Source of the DNA: Patescibacteria group bacterium
GTDB lineage: Bacteria > Patescibacteriota > Minisyncoccia > Phycocordibacterales > EsbW-18
Reading direction: 5' to 3'
Assembly: GCA_038064475.1 (NCBI GenBank)
Contig: JBBTTA010000003.1
Coordinates: forward strand, 24,985-88,984
Length of the DNA stretch: 64,000 nt
The translations under genes were made by a program, and so were the position numbers. Below the pieces are notes generated by a model. It was not told the origin of the DNA and made no database searches. It saw nothing but the letters and a program-made list of their open reading frames with translations. How positions within the stretch are numbered: position 1 is the stretch's first letter; each line of letters begins with the position of its first letter. Positions 11,197 through 56,057 of the stretch are shown here, piece after piece.

Positions 11197-11730
11197 ATGA
11201 ATTTGTGGCATGACGTCTCAACAGGAGACAATACACCGGACGAGGTGAACATTGTTGTTGAAATCAACAAAGGTTCAAAGAACAAATACGAAATCGACAA
11301 AACAACGGGACTCATCGCGCTTGATCGCGTGATGCACACGTCACAAGACTATCCTTTCGATTACGGTTTTGTTCCTCGCTCATACTGGCACGACAAAGAC
11401 CCTCTCGATGTGGTGGTGTTGACGACGCATCCATTGATGCCCGGTATCCTCGCTACGGTCCGTCCTGTCGCCATCATGAACATGCTCGACAACAATCAAG
11501 GCGACGACAAACTCATCTGCGTTCCTGTTGATGATCCTCGCTTTGAACACGTGCACGATCTCAAGGACATCCACAAACACACACTCAAAGAAATAGAGCA
11601 TTTCTTTTCAACGTATAAGAAAATTCAGAATAAGCCAGTTGAGGTGACTGGTTTCAAGGGTGTTATTGAGGCGAAGACCGCTCTCAACGAAGCGCTTGCG
11701 CTCTACAAAAAAGAATTTCCAAAAGCATAG
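11197..11730 (+). CDS. ppa: Inorganic pyrophosphatase (family I)
   Basis: 177 aa; VVEINKGSKNKYEID...DYGFVP...DPLDVVVL signature. Confidence 0.9.
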   Translation: MNLWHDVSTGDNTPDEVNIVVEINKGSKNKYEIDKTTGLIALDRVMHTSQDYPFDYGFVPRSYWHDKDPLDVVVLTTHPLMPGILATVRPVAIMNMLDNNQGDDKLICVPVDDPRFEHVHDLKDIHKHTLKEIEHFFSTYKKIQNKPVEVTGFKGVIEAKTALNEALALYKKEFPKA

Positions 11731-38977: not shown

Positions 38978-39150
38978 ATTGTACTATACCCCGCACTAAA
39001 ATGGCTTATTTACTCGTCAAGGCGTTGCCTTGACGATGACTAGACGCCCAGCGTCTAGTCAAAATTGATAGACACTCGGTGTCTATCAAAAGAAGTCTTG
39101 TATTATCAACGCTTGCTCGTTGGAGATAGGTTTAGTGCGGGGTATACTTT
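38978..39150. repeat. Palindrome block: three consecutive 9-10 bp-arm palindromes with 3-nt spacers framed by an inverted pair of the 18-bp motif actataccccgcactaaa / tttagtgcggggtatact
   Basis: tcgtcaaggc-gtt-gccttgacga (39014..39036), gactagacgc-cca-gcgtctagtc (39038..39060), gatagacac-tcg-gtgtctatc (39065..39089), flanked by 38980..38998 and 39131..39150. Confidence 0.85.
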
Positions 39151-39155
39151 ACAGC

Positions 39156-40148: not shown

Positions 40149-40149
40149 T

Positions 40150-41922
40150 ATGTTGCGTTTCTCATCACAAAAAAGCCGCTCAACCCTCCTCACTATCATT
40201 GCGGGCTTTGCTATTTCGGTCTTTCTGCTTATACCGTTTGTACAAGTGTCAACGGTGAAGGCAGATTTTCAAGACAACCTCGAGGAGTGTGGTGAAGCCG
40301 CTCTCATTTCGCTTATCGGCATGCTCATTTCTGCCGCAGCAACACGTGTACCAATTGATGATTGGCCAAGTTGGATCAAAGAACAGGTGATGGACTGTGT
40401 CGCATGGGCAGCAAAGGCTTGGATCATCGAAGACATGACCGGACAAACCGTGGCGTATGTTCAAACTGGTATCAACGGAAATCCTGCATTCGTTCAAAAT
40501 CTTCGACAGCATCTCACACGACAAGCGGATGTCATTGCAGGATCATTCATCGAACAAACAGTTCCGTTTCTCTGTTCTCCATTCCAAGCTGACATCCAGT
40601 TAGCACTCATGAATTTGTATCGAAATGCAAAAGGTGTTGGATATTACCAATATGCAAGTTGTACACTCACCGAAGCAGTTGAAAATGTTGATGACTTTAT
40701 TGGCGGAGATTTTTCTGCGGGAGGATGGGAAGGATGGTTTGCGTTTGTTGGTGATCCGTACAACAACCCGATCGGCTCCTACATCGAAACATCAAACGAA
40801 CTTGCATCACGTTTGAATGCAGCAGCTGAGGAAGAAAGAACGGAGCTCGCATTTGCTAGTGGATTTTTGCGCAAAAAAACACAGACGTGTTATGCGTACC
40901 CTCCAGAAGGTCAGACTGGAGCTCCGCAACAATTTACAATACGAGATGGGCAATCTTTGGAAGAAGCTTTAGCAGAAGCTGGTATTGATAGTGCAGCTGA
41001 ATACGAGTGTGATCCTGCACAAACAATCACGCCAGGAGAGACGGTAAAATCTGGGCTTGAAAGTGTGTTCAAAACAAACCTTGACCAAGTTGTTGCTGCA
41101 GATGAGTTGAATGAAATTATTGCACTCTGGCTTGGGTATCTTCTCTCTGATGTATTGACTGGTGACGAAGGTCTTGCGGGATATACAAACGAAGACTTTC
41201 CTGAACACGAAGGTGTGACAGAAGACGGAGATCCGTACGAAGATGATTTGCCACCAATTCAAACAACATGTGGAACAGGAGGTTGGCTTGAAGCGGCTCC
41301 GGGCGTCACACAAGAGTTCGAACCATATCACTTCGAACGAAATGGTTTGGTACTTGATGCACAACCAGGCAATGCAAATATTGCATTTGAACTTGATACA
41401 CCAGCTGAAGCGGGTGAGTACTACACAAAAGTACAGGTAAGTATTGATGTAGAGATCGGACCTTGGTACGAACCAATGCCAACCGATTTTCACCAAATCA
41501 TGTATATCCAACGCGAAAGTAACCCAAACAATTACGACTGGCGTGAAAACAACCTTGGTATTTTGAACCTCCGTGGTCCTGGTCAAAATAAGTTTATTGC
41601 AGGACACAATTTGAATCTTACGATCGGTGATTGTACAAAATCAAAGAGCTCAAGCTTCTCGCCACAACAAGGTCAGCGTTACACATTCGTGTATGGATAC
41701 GACACAACACAAAGACTTGCGTGGGCAGAAGTAAAGCAAGGAAATCAGATTGTGACATCTGTTGGATTTAGCCCGACGGCAGAATTCATTGAAGCGATCC
41801 ACCCGTTGCATCGTGGCAATGAAGGGTTCTTCATCTCAATCGGTGGTCCAGACGGATACCACGCTCCTGAAGTGCCGATGTACGGATGGAAGTTCTACGA
41901 CCTCGTCGTCGACTTTGAATAG
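40150..41922 (+). CDS. Large secreted hypothetical protein (590 aa)
   Basis: Start MLRFSSQ at 40150 immediately after the previous stop; signal anchor LLTIIAGFAISVFLLIPFVQVSTVKA. Confidence 0.55.
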   Translation: MLRFSSQKSRSTLLTIIAGFAISVFLLIPFVQVSTVKADFQDNLEECGEAALISLIGMLISAAATRVPIDDWPSWIKEQVMDCVAWAAKAWIIEDMTGQTVAYVQTGINGNPAFVQNLRQHLTRQADVIAGSFIEQTVPFLCSPFQADIQLALMNLYRNAKGVGYYQYASCTLTEAVENVDDFIGGDFSAGGWEGWFAFVGDPYNNPIGSYIETSNELASRLNAAAEEERTELAFASGFLRKKTQTCYAYPPEGQTGAPQQFTIRDGQSLEEALAEAGIDSAAEYECDPAQTITPGETVKSGLESVFKTNLDQVVAADELNEIIALWLGYLLSDVLTGDEGLAGYTNEDFPEHEGVTEDGDPYEDDLPPIQTTCGTGGWLEAAPGVTQEFEPYHFERNGLVLDAQPGNANIAFELDTPAEAGEYYTKVQVSIDVEIGPWYEPMPTDFHQIMYIQRESNPNNYDWRENNLGILNLRGPGQNKFIAGHNLNLTIGDCTKSKSSSFSPQQGQRYTFVYGYDTTQRLAWAEVKQGNQIVTSVGFSPTAEFIEAIHPLHRGNEGFFISIGGPDGYHAPEVPMYGWKFYDLVVDFE

Positions 41923-41923
41923 T

Positions 41924-44107
41924 ATGAGTACAAACATTACAAAAATCCTTGGGGTGGTGATCGGAACATTCGCGATCTTTGTAATGTTTTTTGTTGTGGC
42001 TCCAGAGAAAGCAGAGGCCATTGAATGTCCTATTGGGCAAGTTGATGTTGGTGGAAGTTGCGTGGACTACGAAGAAAACCCCGAGGACGTCTCTTCTGCA
42101 AACTTAGACAACACAGAACAACCCCCAGAGTTTGGTTGTTCATTTAGTGCTTTTGATTTTTGGGGAGGTGTAAAAGGTTGTATGGCAGCCGTGTCTTACA
42201 CCATCATGTCCTTCTTTGCCATATTTCTTGGTGTTGCAGGACTCCTTCTTAACGGTGCGGTTGAGTTAACAGTTAGAAACATTGGTCCGTTTGTGAATGG
42301 TGTAGGGGATAGTGTTACTGGAATTGAACTTGCGTGGAAGTTGTTTAGAGATCTGGGCAATATCGTTATTCTTTTTGTGCTTTTGTTCTCTGCAATTGGA
42401 ATCATCTTCCGCACTGACAACATTGTTCCGCGCAAGACACTCGGAAAAGTAATTATTGCTGCGTTTCTTATTAATTTCAGCCTCTTCTTCACCAAAGCAA
42501 TTATCGATGTGTCGAACGTGTTTACGTTCACTATTCACAATGAAATTCAAAAAATCAGTGAAACAAATGACGATAATCTTGTCATTGGTGTTGCGGGCGC
42601 ATTCATGAATGGTCTAGATCCAATAACGATATACCGTAGTTTTCAAAAAGAGGCCGCTTTAGGAAAACCTGTTGAGAGCCATATTTTCCAACAAATGATT
42701 TTTGGGACCATCGTTCTGTTGGTAGCAACGTTTGTCTTTTTGGTCATGGCAGCGATGCTTTTGATTCGTTTTGTGATTCTTTTGTTCCTTTTGGTAACTT
42801 CTCCAATTGGTTTTGTGGGTGGTTTAATTCCTAAACTTCAAAAATATTCTACTGATTGGTGGAATGCTCTTCTTGGGCAAGCAATGTTCGCTCCAGTGTT
42901 GATGCTTTTTATACTTATTTCAATCTTGCTTATCAATAGCCCTGGTTTCAAAGACGCATTAAACTACAGTCCCGACTTAAAACTTGTTGATAGCAATGTT
43001 GGAAGTTTTCTTGGATTTGCTGGGAGTGGGGTAACAGGCATCATTCAATATGTTGTGGTGATTGGCCTTCTCATCACAGGACTCGTTGTTGCAAAGAAAA
43101 CAGCGGGAGATCTTGGAAAAGGCGCTGTCAGTTGGGTATCGAAGAAAGCAGGTTCATTGGCATTCGGTGCAACAGCAGCGGCAGGCTCGTATAGTATTGG
43201 AAGGTTTGGAGGAAAGCTCGCCGACTCACAATTTGCAAACACACTTCAGGGAAGCTCTAATTTTGCTGCGCGCCTAGTTGGTCGTGGTCTCATTAATACT
43301 GGAAAATGGACTGGGAAAAGAAGTTTCGATATTCGAGGAACATCTGCTGGAAAACAGTTGGATGCCGAAAAGGGTGCTTCTGGATTTATTGAGCGTGAAA
43401 AAGCAGAAAAGAAACGAATTGAGGAAGCGCGCAAAAAAATTAAACCTGATGACACAAGTGCAGCTGAACGTTTGGCTCTTAAGGCTGACCTTGAGTCGGG
43501 CAGCGTTGAGCGTGAAAAACTCAAGGCTGAGATCAAAAAACTTGAGGGTGTGGAAAAAAGCACTCTTACTACAGATGCTCAAAAAGCAGATGCTCGAGAA
43601 AAACGAGAGCGTCTTGAGAAAGAAAATGCAGTATGGCTTGCTCGCGAAGAGCGTTTGGACAAACTCGAAAAACAAAGTCCTGCTGTGCAAGAAGAGCGCC
43701 AGAAACAGGCACGAAAAGAAATTGCCGATTTGGCAAAAACACTTCAAAGCCATCAAATCCGTTTCGTTCAAGACATCATGAACGAAAAGAACGATGATAA
43801 ACGAAAGAAAATGCAGGATAGTCTAACTGGAAATGGGGCAAGGCTCGCAAAAGCAATTGAAAACCTTAGCGCTGCAAGTAAGAACATGGGTGATATCCAA
43901 AAAGCAGGTCAACTTGAATGGGCAAATCGTATGGCTAACGAAGGTGGTCCAATAAAGGCTGCTGCAGATAACATTAGAAAGGAGCTTAATAAATCAAAGG
44001 GTAAGAAAGCACTTGAGGATGCTATTGAGGGGATGGATAAAGAGGGCGGTGGAAAAGATAAGGGAGAAAAACCTGAAAGCGAAACACCTGCTCCAGATAA
44101 AAAATAA
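41924..44107 (+). CDS. VirB6/TrbL-like polytopic membrane protein with long charged coiled-coil C-terminal tail
   Basis: Start MSTNITK at 41924; at least 6 hydrophobic helices; about 330 aa Lys/Glu-rich C-terminal region. Confidence 0.55.
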   Translation: MSTNITKILGVVIGTFAIFVMFFVVAPEKAEAIECPIGQVDVGGSCVDYEENPEDVSSANLDNTEQPPEFGCSFSAFDFWGGVKGCMAAVSYTIMSFFAIFLGVAGLLLNGAVELTVRNIGPFVNGVGDSVTGIELAWKLFRDLGNIVILFVLLFSAIGIIFRTDNIVPRKTLGKVIIAAFLINFSLFFTKAIIDVSNVFTFTIHNEIQKISETNDDNLVIGVAGAFMNGLDPITIYRSFQKEAALGKPVESHIFQQMIFGTIVLLVATFVFLVMAAMLLIRFVILLFLLVTSPIGFVGGLIPKLQKYSTDWWNALLGQAMFAPVLMLFILISILLINSPGFKDALNYSPDLKLVDSNVGSFLGFAGSGVTGIIQYVVVIGLLITGLVVAKKTAGDLGKGAVSWVSKKAGSLAFGATAAAGSYSIGRFGGKLADSQFANTLQGSSNFAARLVGRGLINTGKWTGKRSFDIRGTSAGKQLDAEKGASGFIEREKAEKKRIEEARKKIKPDDTSAAERLALKADLESGSVEREKLKAEIKKLEGVEKSTLTTDAQKADAREKRERLEKENAVWLAREERLDKLEKQSPAVQEERQKQARKEIADLAKTLQSHQIRFVQDIMNEKNDDKRKKMQDSLTGNGARLAKAIENLSAASKNMGDIQKAGQLEWANRMANEGGPIKAAADNIRKELNKSKGKKALEDAIEGMDKEGGGKDKGEKPESETPAPDKK

Positions 44108-44804: not shown

Positions 44805-45182
44805 ATGGAAACTCCACTTAAGGATTTTACAAGCTTACGAGTGTGGCAACACTCTCGTCATTTTGCTGTAAAGATTTATAAAATTACCAGCGCATTTCCT
44901 CGAGATGAGATTTTTGGTTTAACGAGTCAACTTAGGCGTGCTTCCGTATCAATTGCTTCAAATATTGCGGAAGGTTTTGGCAGATTTTCGTTTAAAGAAA
45001 AAGTTCAATTCTACAATATTGCTCAATCCTCACTAATTGAAACGCAAAATCAGCTTATAATTTCAAAAGATGTCGACTATCTCCCTGAAAAAGAGTTTCA
45101 TATGGTATACAATGAGTCTGTGCTTATAGCGAAGATGTTATCTGCCCTCGTTAGGTCGTCTCGATCAAAATTTGGCTCTTAA
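44805..45182 (+). CDS. Four-helix-bundle protein (TIGR02436-like, the family often found in 23S rRNA intervening sequences)
   Basis: 125 aa; LRVWQHSRHFAVKIYKITSAFPRDEIFGLTSQLRRASVSIASNIAEGFGR pattern; flanked by inverted heptamer-repeat blocks 44735..44770 and 45186..45214. Confidence 0.7.
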   Translation: METPLKDFTSLRVWQHSRHFAVKIYKITSAFPRDEIFGLTSQLRRASVSIASNIAEGFGRFSFKEKVQFYNIAQSSLIETQNQLIISKDVDYLPEKEFHMVYNESVLIAKMLSALVRSSRSKFGS

Positions 45183-45217: not shown

Positions 45218-45652
45218 ATGCGATTCGAAGTGCCACAATTTATTGAAGTCGAGGACAAAATATTTGGTCCTTTAACGTTCAAACAATTCGTCTACCTCGC
45301 CGGAGGTGGTGGTTTGTGTGTGATTATCTGGATTTTCGTTCCAAAAATCATCGGTATCTTTCTTATTCTCGCTGTTGCTGGTTTTGCGCTCGCACTTGCG
45401 TTCTACCAACCCAACAATAAGCCGTTTGTGGCTCTTCTTGAGGCCGCACTTCGCTATGGAACGGGAGGAAAGCTCTATATTTGGAAAAAAGAAGAGAAAA
45501 AGGCAGTGTCATCAGCAACTGCAGGTCAAAAGGCTCAAGATGCGGCCGCAAATCTCTCTGTCCCTCGTCTTTCAGACAGCCGTTTGCGCGATCTTGCATG
45601 GAGTCTCGATGTACATGACTCACTCTATAGCGATCAAGCAGAAAACAAATAA
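45218..45652 (+). CDS. PrgI/VirB3-like small membrane protein
   Basis: FIEVEDKIFGPLTFKQFVYLAGGGGLCVIIWIF matches the PrgI-family N-terminus; position before VirB4. Confidence 0.55.
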   Translation: MRFEVPQFIEVEDKIFGPLTFKQFVYLAGGGGLCVIIWIFVPKIIGIFLILAVAGFALALAFYQPNNKPFVALLEAALRYGTGGKLYIWKKEEKKAVSSATAGQKAQDAAANLSVPRLSDSRLRDLAWSLDVHDSLYSDQAENK

Positions 45653-45715: not shown

Positions 45716-46372
45716 ATGGCTCAAACAAAAGCCCAGTCGGCGCAGGCCTTTGTACCTGTGAAAGAAATTCGTAATGGTATTGTCGTTCTCAAAGACGGCT
45801 CTCTTCGCGCAATTTTGCTCGCTTCGTCATTGAATTTTGCCCTCAAGTCTGAAGACGAGCAATCGGCTATCATTTTGCAATTCCAAAATCTCCTCAACTC
45901 AGTTGAATTTCCAATACAAATCTTTATTCAGTCACGCGAACTCGATATTCGTCCGTACCTAGCACTCCTTGAAGCACAATTAAAAGAGCAGACCATCGAC
46001 CTCATTAAGGTACAGACACATGAGTACATCGACTTCATCAAAGGTTTCACTGAAAACGTTAATATTATGTCAAAGAGTTTCTTTATCGTGATTCCATACA
46101 GCTCCGCAATGATTAAAACTGCGGGTGGTATCAGTGGTGTCGTGGGCGGACTTGTTGGCACAAAAAAGAGTCGTGATCCAAAAGCAGCACTTGATCTCTT
46201 TGAGGAGGGGAGAAGTCAATTGGAGCAACGCGTCAGTGTTGTCTCACAAGGTCTCTCGCGCACAGGTATTCGCGTTGCACAACTTGGTACTGAAGAGTTG
46301 GTCGAGCTCTACTACAAATTATTTAATCCGGGTGATTCAGAAAAACCAATTAAACTTGGACCAACTTCATAA
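45716..46372 (+). CDS. VirB4-type ATPase, N-terminal segment (ends at in-frame TAA)
   Basis: VPVKEIRNGIVVLKDGSLRAILLASSLNFALKSEDEQ typical VirB4/TraC N-domain; same frame as the next ORF. Confidence 0.6.
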   Translation: MAQTKAQSAQAFVPVKEIRNGIVVLKDGSLRAILLASSLNFALKSEDEQSAIILQFQNLLNSVEFPIQIFIQSRELDIRPYLALLEAQLKEQTIDLIKVQTHEYIDFIKGFTENVNIMSKSFFIVIPYSSAMIKTAGGISGVVGGLVGTKKSRDPKAALDLFEEGRSQLEQRVSVVSQGLSRTGIRVAQLGTEELVELYYKLFNPGDSEKPIKLGPTS

Positions 46373-46375
46373 TCT

Positions 46376-48310
46376 ATGGCATTCCTCGATATTTTTAAAA
46401 AGAAAAAGAATGATGCGCTCGATATTGTTCCGGTGTTGCCGAAAGATATCTACGAAGCGGGTGTGCTGGAATTGCAAGATATAATTGCACCGTCAGCGTT
46501 GCGTATCACACCACGTGAACTATCACTCGGAGATAAAATAGTTCGCACGTTCTTTGTTATTTCATATCCGCGATTTCTTCCTGACAACTGGATTTCTCCA
46601 ATTATCAACCTCGACAAGGTGTTCGATATTTCTATTTCAATTATTCCTGTTGAAACATCGTCAGCGCTCAAAGATTTCCGAAAACGCGTTGCCGAAGTAC
46701 AAAGTCAGATTCACACACGTGAAGAAAAAGGTCTTGTGCGCGATCCGATTTTGGATGCTGCGTACCAAAACCTTGAGAACCTCCGTGATCAATTGCAGCA
46801 GGCAACAGAGAAACTTTTTGATGTTGGTCTCTACATCTCGATGTATGCAGATAGTGAGACAGAGCTTGATAAAATCGAGTCTGAAATCCGCTCAATTCTT
46901 GAATCTCGACTCGTGTATGTGAAGCCAGCACTCTTTCAACAGGAGCAGGGATTTAAGAGTGTGATGCCAATTGGAACGGATGAATTGGGTGTGCACTCAA
47001 AACTGAACACGTCTCCGTTGTCGAGTTTTTTTCCATTCGTCTCATTCGACCTCACGTCGGACAAAGGAATCCTGTATGGTGTCAATCGTCACAACTCAAG
47101 TTTGATTCTCTTCGATCGTTTTTCAATGCCGAACTACAACTCAGTGACATTCGCCACATCTGGTGCCGGAAAATCATACGCAACAAAATTGGAAATTCTT
47201 CGTACACTCATGTTCGACACTGAAGTGATTGTTCTCGACCCTGAACGTGAATACGAATACATGGCAGAAGCGATGGGTGGGCGTTACTTCAATATTTCTT
47301 TGACATCAGAACATCACATCAATCCATTTGATCTTCCTCCTGCACGTGAAGATGAAACTCCATCAAACGTATTGCGTTCACACATTGTGACGTTGGTTGG
47401 TCTTTTCCGCATCATGTTCGGCGGTCTCACACCTGAAGAAGATGCAATCATCGATCGCGCAATCACCGAAACGTACGCACTCAAAGACATCACCGGTGAA
47501 GCAGACTTCACCGGAACCGAACCACCACTTCTTTCTGACTTTGAATTGGTGCTTGCGGGTATGCAAGGAGCAGAATCACTCGTACAACGATTGTCGAAGT
47601 ACACGAAAGGAACGTGGGCAGGTTTCATCAACAAACCAAGTAACGTCGACATCAATAAAAAGTTCGTAGTGTTCTCGGTGCGTGACATGGAAGACGAATT
47701 GAAACCAGTTGCTATGTACCTCGTTGCAAACTACATCTGGAGCGCGGTGCGAAAGAATTTGAAAAAACGATTGCTCGTTATTGATGAGGCGTGGTGGATG
47801 ATGAAAGATGAAGATACTGCATCACTTCTCTTTGGTCTCGCAAAACGTGGACGAAAATATTACCTCGGTATTGCAACAATCACACAAGACGTCGGTGACT
47901 TCTTGCGCTCACCATATGGTTTGCCAATCATCACCAACTCTTCAATTCAGTTGCTCTTGAAGCAATCTCCATCATCTATTGATGTTGTGCAGCGCACCTT
48001 TAATCTCACTGACGAAGAGAAGTATTTGTTACTTGAGTCAGAGGTAGGAGAGGGAATCTTCTTTGCTGGTCTTAAACATGTGGCAATTAAGAGTATTGCC
48101 TCATATACCGAGGATCAAATCATTACATCCGATCCATCCCAAGTTTTGGCCCTCAAACAGGCTCGTACGGAATGGAAAAACACTAAGCGGGGTGCTGAAG
48201 CAGCAGGTGAAGTGGCTCCATTGCCTCCAATTCTTCCTCCAGCTCCAGCGGAACCCACAATTCCGCAAGCCCCAGGAACACCAAACACCGATCTTAAGGG
48301 TATTGTCTAA
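46376..48310 (+). CDS. VirB4-type ATPase, main segment with Walker A/B
   Basis: Walker A TSGAGKSYAT, Walker B RLLVIDEAWW, CagE/TrbE/VirB4 family architecture. Confidence 0.75.
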   Translation: MAFLDIFKKKKNDALDIVPVLPKDIYEAGVLELQDIIAPSALRITPRELSLGDKIVRTFFVISYPRFLPDNWISPIINLDKVFDISISIIPVETSSALKDFRKRVAEVQSQIHTREEKGLVRDPILDAAYQNLENLRDQLQQATEKLFDVGLYISMYADSETELDKIESEIRSILESRLVYVKPALFQQEQGFKSVMPIGTDELGVHSKLNTSPLSSFFPFVSFDLTSDKGILYGVNRHNSSLILFDRFSMPNYNSVTFATSGAGKSYATKLEILRTLMFDTEVIVLDPEREYEYMAEAMGGRYFNISLTSEHHINPFDLPPAREDETPSNVLRSHIVTLVGLFRIMFGGLTPEEDAIIDRAITETYALKDITGEADFTGTEPPLLSDFELVLAGMQGAESLVQRLSKYTKGTWAGFINKPSNVDINKKFVVFSVRDMEDELKPVAMYLVANYIWSAVRKNLKKRLLVIDEAWWMMKDEDTASLLFGLAKRGRKYYLGIATITQDVGDFLRSPYGLPIITNSSIQLLLKQSPSSIDVVQRTFNLTDEEKYLLLESEVGEGIFFAGLKHVAIKSIASYTEDQIITSDPSQVLALKQARTEWKNTKRGAEAAGEVAPLPPILPPAPAEPTIPQAPGTPNTDLKGIV

Positions 48311-48315
48311 ATACT

Positions 48316-48828
48316 ATGGACGAGGAACAGAAATCCCAAAGGCGAATATCGAACGTAACCGCCGTATTGATGGTTATTGTTGCGGTGGTTCTTGATCTTA
48401 TAAACCTCATTCCCGTTGTTGGTGTTTTGGTTGGTAATATCCTCGCTCTTTTAATATTCGGCTTGTGGTATCTCATGCTTGGAATCCCAATTATGGGGGC
48501 ACGGCAATTTGCACGGTGGGGAACAAGTTGGCTTATCGATACCATATCTGTTGGTTATCTCCCCGGCATTACGCTCGGTGCTATACTTATTATTGTAGTA
48601 ACACGTACCGAGGATAAGACCGGAATAAGCCTTATTGATAAGGTAAAGCCAACTTCGGCAGGAACGCTCAAAAACGCTCGGCGTGCGGCAAACCCAGAGA
48701 GAACATTACAAGCACGAGATCGATTGGAACGCCGATTGGCGCGCCGAGCACAAGAAAGTGAGGGTGCGGCAACAAAACCAAAAGAGCACCCCCAAATCAA
48801 AGACATTAATTACCCCAAGGCGGCATGA
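48316..48828 (+). CDS. Membrane protein, hypothetical (T4SS cluster)
   Basis: 170 aa, 3-4 TM helices, basic C-terminal tail. Confidence 0.5.
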   Translation: MDEEQKSQRRISNVTAVLMVIVAVVLDLINLIPVVGVLVGNILALLIFGLWYLMLGIPIMGARQFARWGTSWLIDTISVGYLPGITLGAILIIVVTRTEDKTGISLIDKVKPTSAGTLKNARRAANPERTLQARDRLERRLARRAQESEGAATKPKEHPQIKDINYPKAA

Positions 48829-49562
48829 CGTACGAATCAAGAATCAAGAATCAAGAATCAAGAATTTGCGTTTTGTTTTTAGCGTGCTTCTTGTTTCTTG
48901 CTTCTTGCTTCGTTTTCGCGCGGAGCGCGATAGCACAGAATACTGCAACAGTTGATTTGGTATGGGAAGCAAACTCCTACGTGCCACCGTTCTATAAAGG
49001 TAAAGCCTTAACAACAACCGATGGAGATGTTGATGTATATGCATTTGTTCCAAGTACGTTTGGCAATCCGCTACGCGCAACATATACATGGGAATTAAAC
49101 AGCCAAGTACTTGGCAGTCTCTCGGGTGTAGGTAGATCATCATTGCGTGTTTCAGGTTCTCCTTTTATTGATGATCGTGCAATTAGAGTGCGTGTTGTTG
49201 GAGAGAATGGTCGTGAGGGTTTTGGATATGTACGCATTCCGGCGGTAAAACCAACTATCATGGTCTATGTTGATTCACCACTTGCTGGTGTGCAATTTGG
49301 AAACGCTGTGGTTACTCGTTTAGAAGCACAAACAGAGACCGATCTTACACTAACCGCATACCCATACTTCTTTTCAACATCAGATCGCAATGAAAATCTT
49401 TCATATACATGGAATGTAAACGGTGTTGCGTCAGAAACACGAGGACCAACACTTGTTGCGCGCTCTGAAACAACAGGGACGTCAACGGTAAGTGTTGAGA
49501 TAAACAATGTTTCTAAGATTCTTGAGCGTGCTTCGAAGATATTCTCTGTCGTTCTACAATAG
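48825..49562 (+). CDS. Secreted hypothetical protein with heptamer repeat in its 5' coding end
   Basis: ATGA overlap with the previous gene; n-region MTYESRIKNQESRI followed by h-region CVLFLACFLFLASCFVFA. Confidence 0.55.
   Translation: MTYESRIKNQESRICVLFLACFLFLASCFVFARSAIAQNTATVDLVWEANSYVPPFYKGKALTTTDGDVDVYAFVPSTFGNPLRATYTWELNSQVLGSLSGVGRSSLRVSGSPFIDDRAIRVRVVGENGREGFGYVRIPAVKPTIMVYVDSPLAGVQFGNAVVTRLEAQTETDLTLTAYPYFFSTSDRNENLSYTWNVNGVASETRGPTLVARSETTGTSTVSVEINNVSKILERASKIFSVVLQ
48834..48868. repeat. Heptanucleotide tandem repeat (gaatcaa)x4 plus variant, inside CDS codons 4-14
   Basis: Read directly; the ATG is at 48825. Confidence 0.9.
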
Positions 49563-49601: not shown

Positions 49602-50486
49602 ATGATAAATTTCAAATTTCAAATTTCAAAAAAAGCTCCTTCTTTCTTTTTGTTATTTGTTATTTGTTATTTGTTATTTGTGATTACGCTCCCTGTGTTT
49701 GCACAACAAAACCCACCAACGGTAGATCTCCTTGTTAAGGATTTACCGGGAATTGGCCCTGCTACAGATCTTAAGGGCTTTCTTCAGGGAATATTTAAAC
49801 TCACACTTGGTATTGCGGTCACCGCCGCTATAGCAATCATTGTGTGGAATGGTATTCGCTACATGGTGAGCGATGCGGTTGGTGGAAAAGAGGATGCAAG
49901 GAAATGGATTGGAGAAGCGTTGTGGGGATTGGTACTCGCATTTTCTGCTGTGCTTATTCTTTCAACAATAAACCCACAGCTTACACAATTTGATTTTCTT
50001 ACAACACTGCAAGAAGTGCGTGAAGCTGCTGGTGGTCCGCCGGGGGGTCCTCCCCCTCCTCCACCTCCACCAGGAGATACTCCTCCGGACGGACAATTTA
50101 CCTATCAACCTAGAGTAGCTCCACAACGACTACATGCGTCTTCTCAACTAGAAACATTATTAAGTTGTATTGCAAACAGGGTTCCGGGAAATGTTGGAGA
50201 GATTTCGTCAATATCAGACGAAATGATTACGTCGGGTCAAAGAACCTTTGAGGAATGTGCCGCCGGTGGACAATCTGTTGGATGTGCCCACAGAGCGGGT
50301 TCGCTTCACTATGGTGGATTATTTTGTGTTGGACAGTCATATGCTGTCGACTTTGGAGACGAACAAAATATGAATGTTCTTGGTGATGCGGCCGTATTGT
50401 GTAACCCAAACGTTGCAGTAATAAACGAAGGAAATCATGTGCACATAAGTTTAGGAGATAGTGCGGGTTGTGGACCAGGAAACTAG
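49602..50486 (+). CDS. VirB2/TrbC-like pilin-type membrane domain fused to a C-terminal LAS/M15-like zinc-peptidase-like domain
   Basis: Signal peptide, two hydrophobic helices (LTLGIAVTAAIAIIVW; ALWGLVLAFSAVLILS), Pro-rich linker, C-terminal CAHRAGSLHYGG...AVDFGD...NEGNHVHISLGD (SxHxxG / AxD / HxH pattern). Confidence 0.45.
   Translation: MINFKFQISKKAPSFFLLFVICYLLFVITLPVFAQQNPPTVDLLVKDLPGIGPATDLKGFLQGIFKLTLGIAVTAAIAIIVWNGIRYMVSDAVGGKEDARKWIGEALWGLVLAFSAVLILSTINPQLTQFDFLTTLQEVREAAGGPPGGPPPPPPPPGDTPPDGQFTYQPRVAPQRLHASSQLETLLSCIANRVPGNVGEISSISDEMITSGQRTFEECAAGGQSVGCAHRAGSLHYGGLFCVGQSYAVDFGDEQNMNVLGDAAVLCNPNVAVINEGNHVHISLGDSAGCGPGN
49641..49675. repeat. Heptanucleotide tandem repeat (ttgttat)x4 plus variant ttgtgat inside the signal-peptide coding region
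   Basis: Read directly; encodes LLFVICYLLFVI. Confidence 0.9.
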
Positions 50487-50488: not shown

Positions 50489-51778
50489 ATGAAAAAAGCA
50501 CTCATCATCACGGGTATATTGTGTGTCATCATCGCAGGGGTGCTTGCGTTTTTGTGGTATTCATCAATCAAACCTTCTGCAACAACATCATCTGACGCCG
50601 GTTCGTCTGATAGAACCTTTTCACCATTCAGTTCATTTGTAGATTTTCTTACGGGAGACGACAGTGAAACAGAAAACACGGAACAGATAACAGATAACGG
50701 AGGGGAGTCGACAGCTCGTTCTGTGTATGATTTGTTGTCTATTACACCTGCGTACGAAGTAACTGACGCACTTGTTGCAAACGCAGTTATTGTATTCACA
50801 GGAACAACAACAGGAAATATACTTCGCTATGTGGAGCGCGAAACAGGACATATTTATGAACTATCACTTCTTTCTGGTGTCCTGCGACGCCTTTCAAATA
50901 CAACCGTGCCTCGTATTCAGGAAGCATATTTTGGAAATAACGGTTCTTTAATTGCACTGCAGTACTTGGGCGAGGATGGAGAAACAATAGAAACATTTGT
51001 GGGAAGCGTCACAACAACTTCTATTGAATCGTCGAGTGAGTTCACGGGAGATTTTCTTGCACAAAATATTCAAACCATAACACTCCATCCAACACAACCT
51101 GGTGTTTTCTACACTCTAAAAGCAGGTGGTGGTACTGCGGGGCGGTTGTTTGATCCCGTATCAAAACAGATTGCTTCTTTATTCTCGTCTCCGTTGTCTG
51201 AATGGACGGCTTTGTGGAATAGCGGCACAAACATTTATCTCCATACAAAACCCTCTTCGTCAGCTCAAGGTTTTGCATATGCAATCGCGCCTGGAAGCGC
51301 TACACCAGCGCGTGTTTTTACAAACACGTTCGGCATAACCCTTCTTCCAAACCCTTTTAATAAAAACATCCTAGTTGGATCCTCAAAAGACACACCAAAA
51401 ATGTCTCTTTTTAATAACACCGATGGTTCCACGGTGTCACTTGTGGGCACAACGTTCCCTGAAAAGTGTGTGTGGAAAACGGCAACGGTCCTTGTGTGTG
51501 CAATTCCAGAGTCGGCTTCTTCAATTGATTCATGGTACAACGGCAGTGTTTCATTTTCTGATAGTGTTTGGAAAATAAATGTTGAAACGGGGCTTACTGA
51601 TTTCTTGTTCGATAGCGAACAAACCCAAAAAGAATTTGATGCAACACATCTCTCAGTAAGTTCTGATGGGACAATACTTTCTTTTATAAACAAAAAAAAC
51701 TCACACCTTTGGGTTGCAAGTCTTTTACCTCGAACCGATACAATTGATGTTAATGCTGAATTTGAAGAAAATTACTAA
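50489..51778 (+). CDS. Membrane-anchored/secreted hypothetical protein (430 aa)
   Basis: Start MKKALIITGILCVIIAGVLAFLWY at 50489. Confidence 0.5.
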   Translation: MKKALIITGILCVIIAGVLAFLWYSSIKPSATTSSDAGSSDRTFSPFSSFVDFLTGDDSETENTEQITDNGGESTARSVYDLLSITPAYEVTDALVANAVIVFTGTTTGNILRYVERETGHIYELSLLSGVLRRLSNTTVPRIQEAYFGNNGSLIALQYLGEDGETIETFVGSVTTTSIESSSEFTGDFLAQNIQTITLHPTQPGVFYTLKAGGGTAGRLFDPVSKQIASLFSSPLSEWTALWNSGTNIYLHTKPSSSAQGFAYAIAPGSATPARVFTNTFGITLLPNPFNKNILVGSSKDTPKMSLFNNTDGSTVSLVGTTFPEKCVWKTATVLVCAIPESASSIDSWYNGSVSFSDSVWKINVETGLTDFLFDSEQTQKEFDATHLSVSSDGTILSFINKKNSHLWVASLLPRTDTIDVNAEFEENY

Positions 51779-51779
51779 A

Positions 51780-52505
51780 CTACTTTTTTTCCTCGAGTCG
51801 TTTACGAATTACATACTCTTGTCCAATAGAGAAGATGTTGCTTGTTGTCCAGTAGAGCGCGATCGATGCGGGAAGTGATGCGGAAATAAAAACAATAATG
51901 AGAGGAAAAATATATTTCATTTGGAAATGCATTCCTTTCATAAAATCTGCACCGAATGTTCCTTTCGCACCCGCTTGCGGTTGCACCGACTTCATCAAGA
52001 GTGCTTGAATAAATTGTGTAACACCAGCAAGGATTGCAATCGGAATACTTTTTATTGTCACATCAACAATTCCAAGAAAGAGTGTGCTTGCATGTGTTGG
52101 ACCTGACACAAATGAGTAAAGAAAATCAGGATTCACTACAGGTAGCCCTGATTTCAAGAACATAAAATAAAGGCCAAAAATAATAGGAATTTGGATACCA
52201 AGGAAGAAGATACTTGCAAAAGGATTAATCTTTTCGCGGCGATATACCTCCATTATTTTCATCGCCTGCTGTTGTGAATCGTTTTTGTATTGTGCACGAA
52301 GTGCATCAATTTCTGGTTGCACTTTCTGTGCGACCATCTGCGTTCGGAGTGATTTTTGAGCGAGTGGAAAAAGAACACAACGAATAAGAATCGTAAAGAA
52401 AATAACTGCAATACCAAGATCAGCCCAAGGAAACAGCTGCATTAAAAAGACGAGTCCGTTGTAGAGAGGTGTGGTGACAAGTGTTCCAAAAATTCCTGTA
52501 GACAT
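51780..52505 (-). CDS. yidC: Membrane protein insertase YidC (short form)
   Basis: 241 aa; FFTILIRCVLFPL...conserved YidC/Oxa1 core; rnpA-yidC synteny. Confidence 0.85.
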   Translation of the reverse strand: MSTGIFGTLVTTPLYNGLVFLMQLFPWADLGIAVIFFTILIRCVLFPLAQKSLRTQMVAQKVQPEIDALRAQYKNDSQQQAMKIMEVYRREKINPFASIFFLGIQIPIIFGLYFMFLKSGLPVVNPDFLYSFVSGPTHASTLFLGIVDVTIKSIPIAILAGVTQFIQALLMKSVQPQAGAKGTFGADFMKGMHFQMKYIFPLIIVFISASLPASIALYWTTSNIFSIGQEYVIRKRLEEKK

Positions 52506-52524
52506 ATGTATGATTTTACACCAA

Positions 52525-52845
52525 TTATGAGAGAAGGGAAGTTAGTTCTTTTTGAAGTGTTGTGTGTGTTTGTTCGTCTGTTTTTTTCTTCGCAAAGACC
52601 ACATATGTGTGTCCGGTGTCTTTTTTGAGAAGCGTGTGGAGTATGTGATACACACGACGACGAATAAGATTTCGTGTAACTGCTTTTGCTGCAACTTTTT
52701 TTAAAACAACAACAGCAAAACGTGATGGTTCGTTTTGTTGTATGTTGTTTTTTGTTACGGTGAGATACGTTCCTGTAACCCGTCGTCCGTTTTGTGTTGT
52801 TTTTGCAAACGTTCCCTTCGAAATTCGTTGTCGTTTGGGGAACAT
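52525..52845 (-). CDS. rnpA: Ribonuclease P protein component
   Basis: Basic protein between rpmH and yidC; start taken at MFPKRQRISKG (52845); longer ORF to 52884 would overlap rpmH. Confidence 0.75.
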   Translation of the reverse strand: MFPKRQRISKGTFAKTTQNGRRVTGTYLTVTKNNIQQNEPSRFAVVVLKKVAAKAVTRNLIRRRVYHILHTLLKKDTGHTYVVFAKKKTDEQTHTTLQKELTSLLS

Positions 52846-52852
52846 GAGGAGA

Positions 52853-52987
52853 TTACGCTGAAATTCGCTTGCGGCCTTTTGCACGACGACGCTTCAACAT
52901 ATTTTTTCCTGTCGAAGACTTCATGCGCTTACGAAATCCGTGTGTTTTTGCTCGTTTCTTCTTTTTTGGTTGATAGGTTCGTTTCAT
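52853..52987 (-). CDS. rpmH: 50S ribosomal protein L34
   Basis: Minus-strand [44 protein letters not shown]; not in the ORF track (short). Confidence 0.9.
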
Positions 52988-53106
52988 TGTGGTCTTATGT
53001 TGTTCTTTTTGAACGGTTACCCCCACATTATTAACATAGTTATCTCCCTTTCACAAGTTCCTGAAATGAATCTCACAGTTATAATAGTCTTCGTATTCTC
53101 ACCTAT

Positions 53107-54474
53107 ATGCATCAAGGACCAGAAACAATTGATATCCGTACCCTTTGGAAAGAAGTTCTTGATGGTATCGAACCTACCATCTCAAAAGCTATCTTCAAGA
53201 CATGGTTTAAAGACACCCATATCGTCAAAATAGAGGATGGTACGGTGTTTGTGGGTGTACCTCACATGATGAGTAAGGATTGGCTTTCTACGAAGCTGCA
53301 TAAGCCTATTTTGAAGGGTTTACGGGAACATTCTGATAGTATTCGGGCCGCAGAATACATTATTTCCACAAAAGCCCCTGATGCTTCCCAGTCATCGGTT
53401 ATTATTCCTTCATACTCAAATGGCGTAGGGGAACTACCTCTCAAAGATCTCTATATCAATAAACTTGATAACCTCAATCCTCGCTACACATTTGACTCTT
53501 TTATTGTTGGATCATTCAACGAACTCGCACACGCAGCGGCACAAGCAATCCTTGAGCGTCCCGGAGCTCGCTACAATCCATTTTTTGTCTACGGACAAAC
53601 AGGCCACGGAAAAACACACCTTATTCAAGCTCTGGGAAATGAAATAAAGAAGCGAAATCCTGAAAAAAGAGTGTACTACGTTTCGTCAGAGCGCTTTGCA
53701 CAGGATTTAGTGAATGCAATTCAACTCAACACGGTGGGTGCCTTCAAAGAAAAGTACCGAAAGTATGATGTCTTCATTATGGACGACGTACAATTCATTT
53801 CAAATAAAGAAAAAACACAAGAAGAGCTTTTTCATTTGTTTAATGAGATTTACGATAGGAACGGTCAGATTATTTTTTCTTCAGATAGACACCCAAACTA
53901 CATTCCAAGCATCGCAGATCGTCTTAAGTCGCGTTTTAACGCAGGTATGACAGTTGATATTCCTGCTCCTGACTCTGAATCTCGTGTTGCAATTATTCGT
54001 TCAAAAGCAGCGGAAAACAATGTAGTTCTTTCAGATGAGGTTATTCAACAAATTTCAACAACAATCGATGGCAATATTCGTGAGTTGGAAGGAATTGTGA
54101 ACTCGTTGATTGCTCATATGATTTTGAAGAAGAAAGATTTGACGGTGTCTGAAGTAAAAGAGGCAATAAAGAACAATATCAAACCAAAACGTCTTGTCTC
54201 TGTGAAGGATGTGGTAAAAATTGTGTCTGGTTTCTATAACCTCGATGAGGAAAGTATCTATAAAAAGAGCCGTAAAAAGGAGGTTGTGAAGCCTCGTCAA
54301 GTAATTATGTATCTCCTTCGTGAAGACTATAGTCTTCCGTATCCTGCAATTGGTGAGAAGCTTGGTGGTCGCGATCATACCACAGTGATTCACTCATACG
54401 AGAAGGTGTGTGAGGATTTAAAAACAGATCATCAGTTGGAACAAGAGATCACACAGCTCCGTGGAATGCTGTGA
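53107..54474 (+). CDS. dnaA: Chromosomal replication initiator DnaA
   Basis: 455 aa; Walker A GQTGHGKTHL, sensor/box VII motifs, C-terminal DNA-binding domain HTTVIHSYEKV. Confidence 0.95.
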   Translation: MHQGPETIDIRTLWKEVLDGIEPTISKAIFKTWFKDTHIVKIEDGTVFVGVPHMMSKDWLSTKLHKPILKGLREHSDSIRAAEYIISTKAPDASQSSVIIPSYSNGVGELPLKDLYINKLDNLNPRYTFDSFIVGSFNELAHAAAQAILERPGARYNPFFVYGQTGHGKTHLIQALGNEIKKRNPEKRVYYVSSERFAQDLVNAIQLNTVGAFKEKYRKYDVFIMDDVQFISNKEKTQEELFHLFNEIYDRNGQIIFSSDRHPNYIPSIADRLKSRFNAGMTVDIPAPDSESRVAIIRSKAAENNVVLSDEVIQQISTTIDGNIRELEGIVNSLIAHMILKKKDLTVSEVKEAIKNNIKPKRLVSVKDVVKIVSGFYNLDEESIYKKSRKKEVVKPRQVIMYLLREDYSLPYPAIGEKLGGRDHTTVIHSYEKVCEDLKTDHQLEQEITQLRGML

Positions 54475-54697
54475 GTTCACAGTGGAGATTATAATGAAAA
54501 ACCTGTGTATATGAATGGAGAAAAAATAACAAAACAATCCTATATGAAAAGTTATCCAAGTTTCTCTCACATACAAACAGATGTTGTTCTTTTTGTCAGT
54601 AGAGAAAAAAGTATTATGGTGTCACATATAAAAGACTTGTACACATATCCGACACCTTAATAGTAATAATAATTTTCTTATATATAAAATAATACGT
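54475..54697. other. Candidate oriC (dnaA-dnaN intergenic) with DnaA-box-like sites and AT-rich unwinding element
   Basis: ttatccaag (54553..54561, 7/9 to TTATCCACA), tgtgtatat; AT-rich tagtaataataattttcttatatataaaataata at 54661..54694; rpmH-rnpA-yidC / dnaA-dnaN synteny. Confidence 0.45.
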
Positions 54698-55798
54698 ATG
54701 AAATTCAGTGTGAATAAAGACAGTTTTCAAACAGCAGTACTTAAAGCAGAGCGAATGACAGGAAAAAACCTTTCGCTCCCAGTACTTCGTTGTGTACTCT
54801 TGAGTGCAGAAAAAGATTCTGTTGTTATTCGCGCTACAAACCTTGATTTGGGAATTGAAGTAACTGTACCTGCACAAGTACAGCAGACCGGTGTTGTTGC
54901 TGTGCCTGCAGATATTCTCGGAAGTCTTCTGTCGTCATCAGGAAACGGCGGTACACTCACTGTTGAGCAAGAAGGTAGTCATATTACAGTTACCACAACA
55001 CACAGCACCACAAACATAAGTACCTATCCTAGAGAAGATTTTCCACTTCTTCCGAAAGTAAACGATACAGAGATGTTTATTGTTGTAGGAAAAGAGTTTG
55101 CAACAGCTCTCAGATCGGTTGTGTGGGCCGCATCAATGGCAAGTATTAAACCAGAACTTTCGAGTGTGTATGTGTATGGAAACGGGGATGAGCTTGTATG
55201 TGTTGCTACAGACTCCTTTAGACTTGCTGAGAAGCGTGTGCGAGCAAAGACAGGAAAAGAATTTGAATCTGTTCTTATACCACTTAAAAACAGTATAGAA
55301 CTTATTCGTTATACTGAAGGACTCTCTGGAGATATAGCGTTTTTTGGAGATACACATCAAATTGCTTCAAAAACAGAAGACACATACATTACATCACGTG
55401 TTATTGATGGGGTGTTTCCTGATTACAAACAAATTATTCCAAAAGAACACAGTACAGAAGCTGTTGTATTAAAACAAGATCTCTCTGACACACTTAAACA
55501 ACTTCGTATTTTTTCTGATCAATTTAATAAACTCACTCTCACTATTAATCCAAAACTAAAAGAGTGTGTTTTAAAAACAACAAATAATGATGTTGGAGAC
55601 AGTACCGTAACACTTGATGCCGCGCTTACAGGAGAATCAGCAGAAATGCACTTTAACCACGCATATATTCTCGACGCACTCCAAGCAATTCATACAGACA
55701 GTGCAGCACTAAATTTAAGTGGTGTTGGAAAACCACTTACAATTCGTTCAGTAGGAGATACGTCGTTTTTGTACATTGTGATGCCAATGAATCGCTAA
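54698..55798 (+). CDS. dnaN: DNA polymerase III beta sliding clamp
   Basis: 366 aa, three-domain clamp. Confidence 0.9.
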   Translation: MKFSVNKDSFQTAVLKAERMTGKNLSLPVLRCVLLSAEKDSVVIRATNLDLGIEVTVPAQVQQTGVVAVPADILGSLLSSSGNGGTLTVEQEGSHITVTTTHSTTNISTYPREDFPLLPKVNDTEMFIVVGKEFATALRSVVWAASMASIKPELSSVYVYGNGDELVCVATDSFRLAEKRVRAKTGKEFESVLIPLKNSIELIRYTEGLSGDIAFFGDTHQIASKTEDTYITSRVIDGVFPDYKQIIPKEHSTEAVVLKQDLSDTLKQLRIFSDQFNKLTLTINPKLKECVLKTTNNDVGDSTVTLDAALTGESAEMHFNHAYILDALQAIHTDSAALNLSGVGKPLTIRSVGDTSFLYIVMPMNR

Positions 55799-55799: not shown

Positions 55800-56057
55800 A
55801 TGTTTCACATCAAAGAACTTTTTGATCGGTACAAACATATAACCCCTCCAGATGCCTCTATACGCTCCGCTGTTGTGAAGGCACTAGCACCTTGGAACAT
55901 CCATACACAAGAGCGTTCTGTGCGCGTTATACACACTGTGGTGTACCTCGATATAGATTCAGTATCAAAGAATGTTGTTTTTTTAAATAAAAACAAAATA
56001 CTCTCTGTAATTGCAGAGAGTATTGGAAAAGAAGGTGTTGTTAAAGATATTCGTTAG
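55800..56057 (+). CDS. Small DUF721-like protein downstream of dnaN
   Basis: 85 aa; position and size typical of DUF721 proteins after dnaN. Confidence 0.4.
   Translation: MFHIKELFDRYKHITPPDASIRSAVVKALAPWNIHTQERSVRVIHTVVYLDIDSVSKNVVFLNKNKILSVIAESIGKEGVVKDIR

Follow-up and report, generated by a model that had tools for sequence, protein, structure and literature searches.

How does an ultrasmall monoderm bacterium bring a secretion machine, or a filament that pierces a host, through peptidoglycan when no VirB1-like enzyme is found beside the machine? This question is raised by a gene (49602-50486) in a 64,000-nucleotide stretch of DNA from a Patescibacteria group bacterium (GenBank assembly GCA_038064475.1, contig JBBTTA010000003.1, positions 24,985 to 88,984 of the forward strand); the whole stretch is called the window below, and positions are counted from its first letter. 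The gene lies in a type IV secretion system (T4SS) cluster, and in its product a module of the VirB2/TrbC pilin type is followed by a domain with the fold of the Hedgehog/DD-peptidase (LAS) superfamily. The reading favoured here, to which a probability of about 0.6 is given, is that the protein would be a membrane-tethered, extracytoplasmic zinc peptidase of LAS type, held on a pilin-module anchor of the Patescibacteria T4SS and cutting the peptide stems or cross-links of peptidoglycan. The 'missing' enzyme with which these secretion systems cut the cell wall is probably this protein.

A pilin-type module joined to a Cys-rich domain

The open reading frame (ORF) had been described in an earlier note on this DNA, and all the motifs quoted there are present in its translation: GGPPGGPPPPPPPPGDTPPDG (residues 144-164), CAHRAGSLHYGG (228-239), AVDFGD (248-253) and NEGNHVHISLGD (275-286). 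The 294-residue protein consists of a Sec signal peptide, a two-helix hairpin, a Pro-rich linker of 21 residues and a Cys-rich C-terminal domain of 130 residues (Table 1). An identical product has been called by independent gene callers on nine public contigs, one of them a contig of 106,649 bp (ENA ERZ1292619, 'Hain_H41_01um') from a 0.1-µm-filtered groundwater sample; thus, an origin of the fusion in a frameshift or in the assembly, which was considered, is ruled out. The ATG of the downstream gene begins 3 bases past the stop codon of the fusion gene, so that the genes are packed in an operon-like manner.

The first half of the protein had been taken for a T4SS pilin of the TrbC kind, an assignment borne out by two Pfam models above their gathering scores, TrbC (PF04956; residues 8-123, 30.8 bits for a cut-off of 27.9) and T4SS_pilin (PF18895; residues 57-122, 28.9 bits for a cut-off of 26.6), and by the hairpin in the AlphaFold2 model. 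This model, based on an alignment of 109 sequences, has helices at residues 13-33 (the signal peptide), 57-89 and 93-123, the hairpin having predicted local distance difference test (pLDDT) values of 84-98, and a hydrophobicity scan finds hydrophobic segments at residues 8, 60 and 102. With a hidden Markov model (HMM) of the pilin built from the family, the fusion protein (E 6e-21) is the sole pilin-like ORF in the 64-kb window, which holds no second pilin. The Pfam thresholds, the signal peptide with its hairpin, and the company of VirB4, VirB3 and VirB6 are all those of a VirB2/TrbC pilin. What departs from a small pilin consisting of a hairpin only is the stretch of about 170 residues after the hairpin, composed of a short helix, the linker and the folded domain of 130 residues.

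In the standard topology of VirB2, the loop is cytoplasmic and both ends lie outside the membrane. By analogy, all residues past 123 would be extracytoplasmic, a site with which the six cysteines of the C-terminal domain fit. The linker, rich in P, G, S and T, measures 21-205 residues in homologues, and the 21 residues present here would span about 6 nm if they adopted a polyproline-II conformation.

Residues 158-294 have no direct match in Pfam, NCBIfam, PHROGs or the PDB sequences (phmmer). A phmmer search of 1.84 billion cluster representatives (clusters at 50% identity) found at least 301 family members at E<=1e-3, of which 184 also pass E<=1e-10. In these proteins, mostly of 250-400 residues, the domain is nearly always placed at the extreme C-terminus, and taking into account that 100 of 109 full-length homologues carry T4SS_pilin (TrbC being present in 9), the pilin fusion is the normal architecture of the family. 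The homologues are named 'hypothetical protein' in their sources, with a C-terminal part devoid of any precomputed Pfam domain; a word-indexed protein search with the domain led to nothing beyond a shortened version of this protein itself, and one with the family alignment to 35 short 'hypothetical proteins' that carry no domain annotation. A scan of the GTDB representative genomes, seeded with a trimmed alignment of 26 sequences, gave 38 loci, all of them (38/38) from metagenome-assembled genomes and almost all labelled Patescibacteria (the labels include Paceibacterota, Kaiserbacteria, Falkowbacteria and Komeilibacteria), with a few bins otherwise labelled. Since tblastn against 50,697 phage and 72,556 plasmid records produced no match, the family is unlike the cargo of mobile elements.

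Residue conservation was counted over 123 aligned homologues with a mean identity of about 47%, using the numbering of the full-length protein. Four residues are invariant (H236, G238, D250 and C267), and C189, C219 and C228 are Cys wherever the residue is aligned (121-122 of the 123 sequences). Conservation reaches 98-99% for H230, S234, Y237, H279 and H281, and exceeds 90% for Q175, S180, D206 and C290. The putative zinc ligands, whose conservation in homologues the earlier note had proposed to check, are kept throughout (H236 and D250 in 123/123, H281 in 122/122), so that the H/D/H pattern is no chance motif. H236, D250 and H281 are predicted to be the first, second and third zinc ligands, and E276 is the predicted general base. 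In a subfamily, N takes the place of E276, a His is gained at the preceding position and a further Cys is present (C-S-V-H-N-G-N-H-V-H), possibly providing an alternative general base. The conserved cysteines number 6-8 per member, mostly eight, and the window protein is without both C235 and C292; these two are found together in 59 members, C292 occurs alone in 2 and neither is found in 19, a co-variation that suggests a dispensable fourth disulfide.

Relation of the C-terminal domain to Hedgehog and DD-peptidases

Foldseek searches with the full-length model are dominated by helical-hairpin matches to the pilin half, and a model of the domain only was used instead (AlphaFold2, alignment of 123 sequences; mean pLDDT 95.3, predicted template modelling score 0.89). 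Among PDB structures, the whole-domain matches (about 130 columns) are Hedgehog N-terminal domains (Hedgehog-N) only, with probabilities of 0.96-0.99 and template modelling (TM) scores of 0.47-0.56, and the others are 40-residue fragments. Examples are 2wg4_A (probability 0.99, TM 0.53) and 6rmg_B (TM 0.56), together with Dhh, Ihh and Drosophila Hh. In BFVD, the best match is a 'Murein endopeptidase K' from Sinorhizobium phage phiM12 (probability 0.99, TM 0.57, 138 columns), followed by phage entries called 'peptidase' and by a Microviridae protein labelled 'Sonic hedgehog'. All the whole-domain matches, Hedgehog-N and phage MepK-like alike, have the LAS fold, which is the outcome that the structural search suggested in the earlier note had been meant to look for.

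Profile comparisons lead to the same proteins. When the family profile was run with hmmsearch against 177,635 distinct PDB sequences, Desert hedgehog (Dhh) was the best match (E 0.049) and Sonic hedgehog (Shh) came next; with the full-length family profile, Dhh, Shh and Ihh are the sole matches that are not membrane proteins, the hedgehog E values being 0.049-2.4. In hhalign, a profile of 26 sequences was aligned with human Shh-N (a sequence 100% identical to the database SHH) at P 6.8e-4, and with a profile of 20 Hedgehog-N sequences at 50% probability and P 1.6e-4; the family profile of 112 sequences reached 88% probability and P 2.9e-6 with this same Hedgehog-N profile. The residues of this protein and of Shh (mouse numbering, as in PMC6027127) are paired as H230/H135, H236/H141, D250/D148, E276/E177, H279/H181 and H281/H183, the E276/E177 pair coming from the 112-sequence run. 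In a relaxed alignment, helix L183-M190 and strand I201-D206 are also paired with 'LNALAISVMN' and 'LRVTEGWD' of Shh. The conserved positions correspond to those listed for Shh and for DD-peptidases in PMC6027127, and H230, as judged by the alignment, is the counterpart of the second-shell/catalytic His of Shh. In addition to the Hedgehog/DD-peptidase fold, in which helices pack on a central antiparallel sheet, the domain presents the H-x-H motif (H279-V-H281) and the Glu (E276) at the place of the general base.

Several results weigh against this assignment or against an enzymatic role. The H-x(3-6)-D motif of LAS enzymes is not found: H236 and D250 are present, but with the spacing H-x13-D, which corresponds in the alignment to a Gly/Cys-rich insertion of 7 residues between them with respect to Hedgehog. 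None of 26 C-terminal domains of the family matches a Pfam model of clan MD even at E<=10, and the window protein has no Pfam match at E<=1 to the curated LAS models (Peptidase_M15, M15_2/3/4, VanY, HH_signal and M74). The Foldseek E values (0.03-0.1) and that of the PDB hmmsearch (about 0.05) are not significant singly, and the hhalign alignment with Escherichia coli MepK (annotated K-12 record), which places D140 on D250 and H173 on H281, is weak (P 0.027). Moreover, the protease activity of Hedgehog itself is disputed, this protein being debated as a pseudo-protease (PMC6027127).

As the single E values are not significant, the case for homology rests on the agreement of the searches and on hhalign. 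That the LAS similarity should be a chance motif on a domain of unrelated fold and function would account for these weak values against solved structures and for the absence of matches in Pfam, NCBIfam and PHROGs. Nevertheless, this explanation is scarcely tenable, taking into account that four independent searches (Foldseek in PDB and in BFVD, hmmsearch in the PDB sequences, and hhalign at 88%) agree on the family and on the residue pairing, and that, when the hhalign alignment is extended, the helix and strand before these residues also fall on those of Shh; a chance H/D/H motif is ruled out by the conservation of the residues together with this pairing. The C-terminal domain can therefore be assigned with high confidence, by fold and homology, to the LAS/Hedgehog-DD-peptidase superfamily. 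Since the spacing is x13, the acidic cluster of Hedgehog is absent and clan MD is not detected, it is described here as a divergent, unmodelled branch of the superfamily outside the existing Pfam families. The LAS-type C-terminus announced in the earlier note holds as regards the fold and the conservation of H/D/H, but not as regards the canonical spacing; of the relatives proposed there, the LAS fold with its MepK-like kin stands, while the nearest branch is that of Hedgehog and the DD-peptidases (M15A-like) and not that of VanX/VanY.

The same relationship could lead to a different reading, in which the domain would be a non-catalytic binding module whose Hedgehog-like pseudo-active site recognises peptidoglycan or a ligand on the host surface; the protein would then be an adhesin-pilin. 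In favour of this are the dispute over proteolysis by the Hedgehog signalling domains (PMC6027127), to which the domain is structurally closest, the unusual H-D spacing and the absence of matches to peptidase HMMs. However, all six positions of the catalytic site, the Glu and the two non-ligand His among them, are kept at 84-100% in a family with about 47% identity, and Drosophila Hh, in which activity was lost, has also lost the D, the H and the E (PMC6027127). Furthermore, the repeated fusions with SLT and glucosaminidase domains in relatives point to enzymatic degradation of the wall. Consequently, a mere binding function is considered very unlikely, and the domain is likely to be catalytically active.

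Gene neighbourhood, companion hydrolases and proposed mechanism

Upstream of the fusion gene, the cluster comprises, in this order, genes for a TSP3-repeat protein, a 618-residue protein without Pfam match, a VirB6-like protein, a 205-residue ORF, a 23S rRNA-intervening-sequence protein, PrgI, a 218-residue ORF, a VirB4-type ATPase and two small secreted/PKD-like proteins. Downstream are found the gene of an anchored protein of 429 residues, yidC and rnpA on the other strand, dnaA and dnaN.

Table 1. Features of the fusion gene and of its surroundings in the window
Feature	Position	Strand	Basis and remarks
Fusion gene, pilin module + LAS-like domain, 294 aa	49602..50486	+	ATG start, TAG stop (50484-50486); ORF listing/translation
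Predicted Sec signal peptide, residues 1-34, ends LPVFA/QQ	49602..49703	+	Lys-rich n-region, hydrophobic core; cleavage site inferred from sequence
VirB2/TrbC-type hairpin, residues 57-123, two helices, short loop SDAVGGKEDARK	49770..49970	+	Pfam, AlphaFold2
Pro/Gly-rich linker, residues 144-164	50031..50093	+	From sequence; pLDDT ~50-60
C-terminal Hedgehog/DD-peptidase-like (LAS-fold) domain, residues 165-294, six Cys	50094..50483	+	Family, AlphaFold2, Foldseek, hhalign
Motif H-R-A-G-S-L-H, H230 (50289-50291) to H236 (50307-50309)	50289..50309	+	H230 122/123, S234 122/123, H236 123/123
D250 in S-Y-A-V-D-F-G-D, predicted second zinc ligand	50349..50351	+	123/123 sequences
E276-G-N-H279-V-H281	50427..50444	+	E276 103/123 (84%), H279 121/123, H281 122/122
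VirB6/TrbL-like polytopic membrane protein, start codon uncertain	41762..44107	+	Pfam TrbL E 0.003, below gathering score; syntenic L001, L002, L030
23S rRNA-intervening-sequence protein, four-helix-bundle family	44805-45182	+	PF05635, E 4e-38; between 205-aa ORF and PrgI
PrgI family (VirB3-like)	45218..45652	+	Pfam PrgI E 6.5e-11; syntenic in 8 related loci
VirB4-type ATPase	46376..48310	+	Pfam P-loop_TraG E 3e-22, AAA_10, DUF87
Two conserved upstream genes, 170 aa + 245 aa (latter secreted, weak PKD match)	48316..49562	+	
Downstream gene, 429 aa, N-terminal membrane anchor	50489..51778	+	Gene call on L040; no Pfam match
Chromosomal origin region rnpA, yidC, dnaA, dnaN, directly beside T4SS cluster	51780-55798		
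Class A penicillin-binding protein	56054-58219	-	
PilB/T2SSE-type ATPase	61694-63373	-	

This whole order recurs in the Paceibacterota locus L001 (VirB4 E=0, DnaA 4e-221), and parts of it in L009, L014, L018, L025, L029 and L038 (L numbers designate related loci). VirB4 is syntenic with the pilin-LAS gene in L001, L014, L018, L025, L029 and L038, homologues of the 170- and 245-residue genes keep the same order in L001, L009 and L025, and those of the 429-residue gene adjoin the fusion in L001, L009, L018 and L025. In L001, the closest syntenic relative, the homologue of ORF44116 is directly followed by PrgI, without a 23S rRNA-intervening-sequence gene. Several of the conserved syntenic genes bear no informative Pfam domain (39120-41922, 45716-46372, 48316-49562 and 50489-51778, all on the + strand), the 218-residue ORF45716 having a match in L001 at E 3e-95; they are candidates for unrecognised T4SS components. 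In the Pfam scan, neither a relaxase nor a coupling protein was seen in the cluster.

The class A penicillin-binding protein indicates that this organism makes peptidoglycan. The cluster is adjoined upstream by a gene (38231-38968, - strand) for a secreted protein of 245 residues with PG_binding_1, a Gly/Thr-rich linker and a C-terminal region without Pfam match, which likewise has no PDB sequence match; considered as a possible hydrolase of the cluster, it was discarded, no catalytic domain being seen. SLT domains were found neither in the fusion protein (Pfam) nor in any ORF of the window (HMM built from the SLT segments of relatives), and the family-built HMM detects no second LAS domain in the 64 kb.

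Wall hydrolases of other types accompany the domain in its relatives. Pilin module, SLT and LAS-like domain are united in one protein, with SLT inserted between the other two, in several homologues (proteins P0011, P0106 and P0142, and the gene at 8669-10348 of L029), and a glucosaminidase is joined to the LAS-like domain in P0104 (1,496 residues). In L018, the pilin-LAS gene (9236-10384) is immediately followed by a pilin+SLT gene (10400-11551). The SLT segments of these relatives keep the E-S catalytic motif, and such arrangements suggest that pilin modules act there as general carriers of wall hydrolases. Other T4SS_pilin genes of relatives, coding for 330-708 residues (L014 10347-12470, L016 10355-11467, L030 2000-4482 and L038 8651-9643), have large C-terminal extensions belonging to no Pfam family, which may be further 'cargo' domains.

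The proposal that a VirB1-like function has been fused to a pilin-like subunit, already made in the earlier note, gains support from this co-occurrence with SLT and glucosaminidase, and from the fact that no other recognisable wall hydrolase exists in the cluster or the window. Lacking an SLT domain with its E-S motif, the fusion protein is a possible functional analogue of VirB1 and not a member of that family.

Two further points weaken the case for a dedicated T4SS enzyme on a pilin. About two thirds of the related loci (~25/38) contain no virB4 within 10 kb, the gene being located among housekeeping genes: in one clade beside miaA, peroxiredoxin, pyrE/pyrF-like genes, parB and relA, and in Falkowbacteria between genes for subunits of pyruvate:ferredoxin oxidoreductase (PFOR), near a DsbA-like gene, recJ, lepA and murJ. 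Thus, the family is a stable chromosomal gene whose linkage to T4SS is not constant. The second is that the higher identity of the C-terminal domain among homologues (47%, against 26% in the hairpin) is a biased measure, the homologues having been found through this domain. In the Falkowbacteria locus L033 (CP066698.1, 4181-10372), two genes with a pilin module are interspersed with those of the PFOR subunits, and a DsbA-like thioredoxin gene lies just upstream of that stretch.

Taking these loci into account, it could be that the N-terminal module is a pilin-derived hairpin serving for anchoring or for docking to the T4SS without forming any pilus, in a hydrolase resembling PrgK or TraG of pIP501. 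This possibility, which bears only on the name 'pilin' and is compatible with the favoured reading, is given somewhat less than even odds. It agrees with the many members unlinked to virB4 among housekeeping genes, with the fast evolution of the hairpin, and with the membrane anchoring general among T4SS hydrolases of Gram-positive bacteria. It also agrees with three homologues of 590-740 residues (P0110, P0131 and P0146) in which T4SS_pilin lies in mid-protein (about residues 300-470) after a long N-terminal region, a position hardly expected in a pilin that simply polymerises. On the other hand, the hairpin matches both TrbC and T4SS_pilin above their curated cut-offs, and the cluster is without any other pilin candidate.

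With the favoured reading, that of a tethered wall peptidase, the following mechanism can be proposed. After removal of the Sec signal peptide, the two hydrophobic helices would insert as a hairpin, leaving the short charged loop in the cytoplasm and tethering the protein to the membrane, at the T4SS or close to it. On its Pro-rich linker, the catalytic domain, stabilised by disulfide bonds, would then be held outside, within the wall layer or near it. There, H236, D250 and H281 would bind Zn2+, and E276, together with H230 and H279, would activate a water molecule, leading to the hydrolysis of a murein peptide bond. The result would be a local opening of the wall at the place where the VirB4/VirB6/VirB3 machine assembles, a job equivalent to that of the VirB1, PrgK or TraG hydrolases elsewhere, for which relatives would use an SLT partner either fused or adjacent.

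The same enzyme might be directed to another target. It could be an offensive or feeding tool, with hydrolase domains displayed on a pilus digesting the wall of the host during episymbiosis. The Pfam pilin models passed, the position of the gene as the only pilin-like one of cluster and window, the linkers of up to 205 residues in homologues and the large C-terminal extensions of other kinds borne by the products of nearby pilin-module genes in relatives (L014, L016, L030 and L038) speak for this idea, as does the finding that the T4SS and a pilin array are essential for the epibiotic growth of Southlakia epibionticum (PMC10633639, PMC12857230, PMC11665869); besides, a role of lytic transglycosylases in weakening host envelopes has been proposed (PMC11665869). 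Even so, it is judged unlikely, taking into account that no VirB2 pilin with a folded C-terminal domain of 130 residues is known to polymerise, that the linker of the window protein has just 21 residues and that the hairpin is poorly conserved (26% identity). A broader form of this idea, in which the VirB2-like module would be a general carrier of folded enzymes (LAS, SLT and others) into the T4SS filament or array, giving a pilus that bores through the host wall, is quite unlikely; if such an enzyme-studded pilus existed, it would explain the essentiality of T4SS and pilins, as well as the absence of a separate VirB1, of a relaxase and of a coupling protein.

Patescibacteria account for a large share of bacterial diversity. 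Should the favoured reading be correct, a wall-cutting activity may be built into a pilin-like subunit, in a domain that current HMM libraries miss. This offers a concrete hypothesis for how peptidoglycan is crossed by the secretion machine, or host-piercing filament, of an ultrasmall monoderm, and a testable answer to the 'missing VirB1' in the secretion system of a major bacterial radiation. The domain, defined and well conserved, merits a family model and would add a bacterial branch to the Hedgehog/DD-peptidase lineage.

Comparison with known systems

A survey of Patescibacteria T4SS searched for VirB2 with the same two Pfam models and reports pilin arrays; most genomes with VirB2 lack VirB1, and pilus biogenesis seems to be independent of a VirB1 homologue (PMC12102498). 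In its text, extra domains are mentioned for VirB1 homologues only, and the fusions discussed are those of VirB3 with VirB4 only (PMC12102498). These clusters often adjoin dnaA (PMC12102498), with which the window agrees. In the only species examined, epibiotic growth requires the T4SS, whose function is called 'completely unknown' (PMC11665869, PMC12857230), and a T4SS review of 2025 and the S. epibionticum study deal with essential VirB2-like pilins without describing any enzyme fusion. The suspicion in the earlier note that the arrangement was new agrees with full-text searches, outside which lay subscription-only literature and the InterPro architecture tables, and which found no published description of a pilin-LAS or pilin-SLT architecture.

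As regards the C-terminal domain, the best structural and profile matches are Hedgehog-N and the bacterial Hedgehog/DD-peptidases (LAS, MEROPS M15A-like, clan Peptidase_MD). The order helix, strand, H...H, D, helix, strand, H-x-H is common to this family and Hedgehog-N, whereas identity is about 17-20%, the 7-residue insertion produces H-x13-D, and the acidic cluster of the Hedgehog calcium site (EGWDEDGHH) is not kept (SISDE/SISDS here). The family is further distinguished by its 6-8 conserved Cys, its fusion to a pilin and the lack of detection by HH_signal or Peptidase_M15 of Pfam. MepK (YcbK) and the phage MepK-like proteins (Peptidase_M15_3), one of which is the best BFVD match, resemble this protein, as predicted for it, in being wall-peptide hydrolases outside the cytoplasmic membrane, and in E. 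coli MepK an A-M-D-F Asp and a V-H-I-D His are aligned with D250 and H281. Nevertheless, MepK is soluble and periplasmic; it carries a Tat/Sec signal, lacks the membrane hairpin and shows only one His ahead of its last ligand instead of H-x-H. Its substrate specificity is not transferable.

VirB1, PrgK (pCF10), TraG (pIP501) and TcpG are likewise encoded in T4SS clusters and act on the wall outside the membrane. PrgK and TraG of Gram-positive bacteria are membrane anchored and combine glycan-cutting with peptide-cutting domains, following the same logic as the pilin+SLT+LAS proteins of relatives (background in PMC12102498). However, the domains of these four hydrolases are SLT/lysozyme-like, CHAP or LytM (M23), and not of M15/Hedgehog type; their anchors are ordinary transmembrane helices, in contrast to the VirB2-type module found here, and the window protein is without SLT.

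With VirB2/TrbC and the VirB2-like pilins of Patescibacteria, this protein shares the signal peptide, the hairpin and a neighbourhood of VirB4, VirB3, VirB6 and dnaA. Canonical pilins have about 70-120 residues when mature, with no more than a short tail that is often removed, whereas here a Pro-rich linker and an enzyme-like domain of 130 residues follow. In sum, this is no categorically new system: its parts (a VirB2-type module, a LAS-type fold and a T4SS wall hydrolase) are known, and it is their combination that is new.

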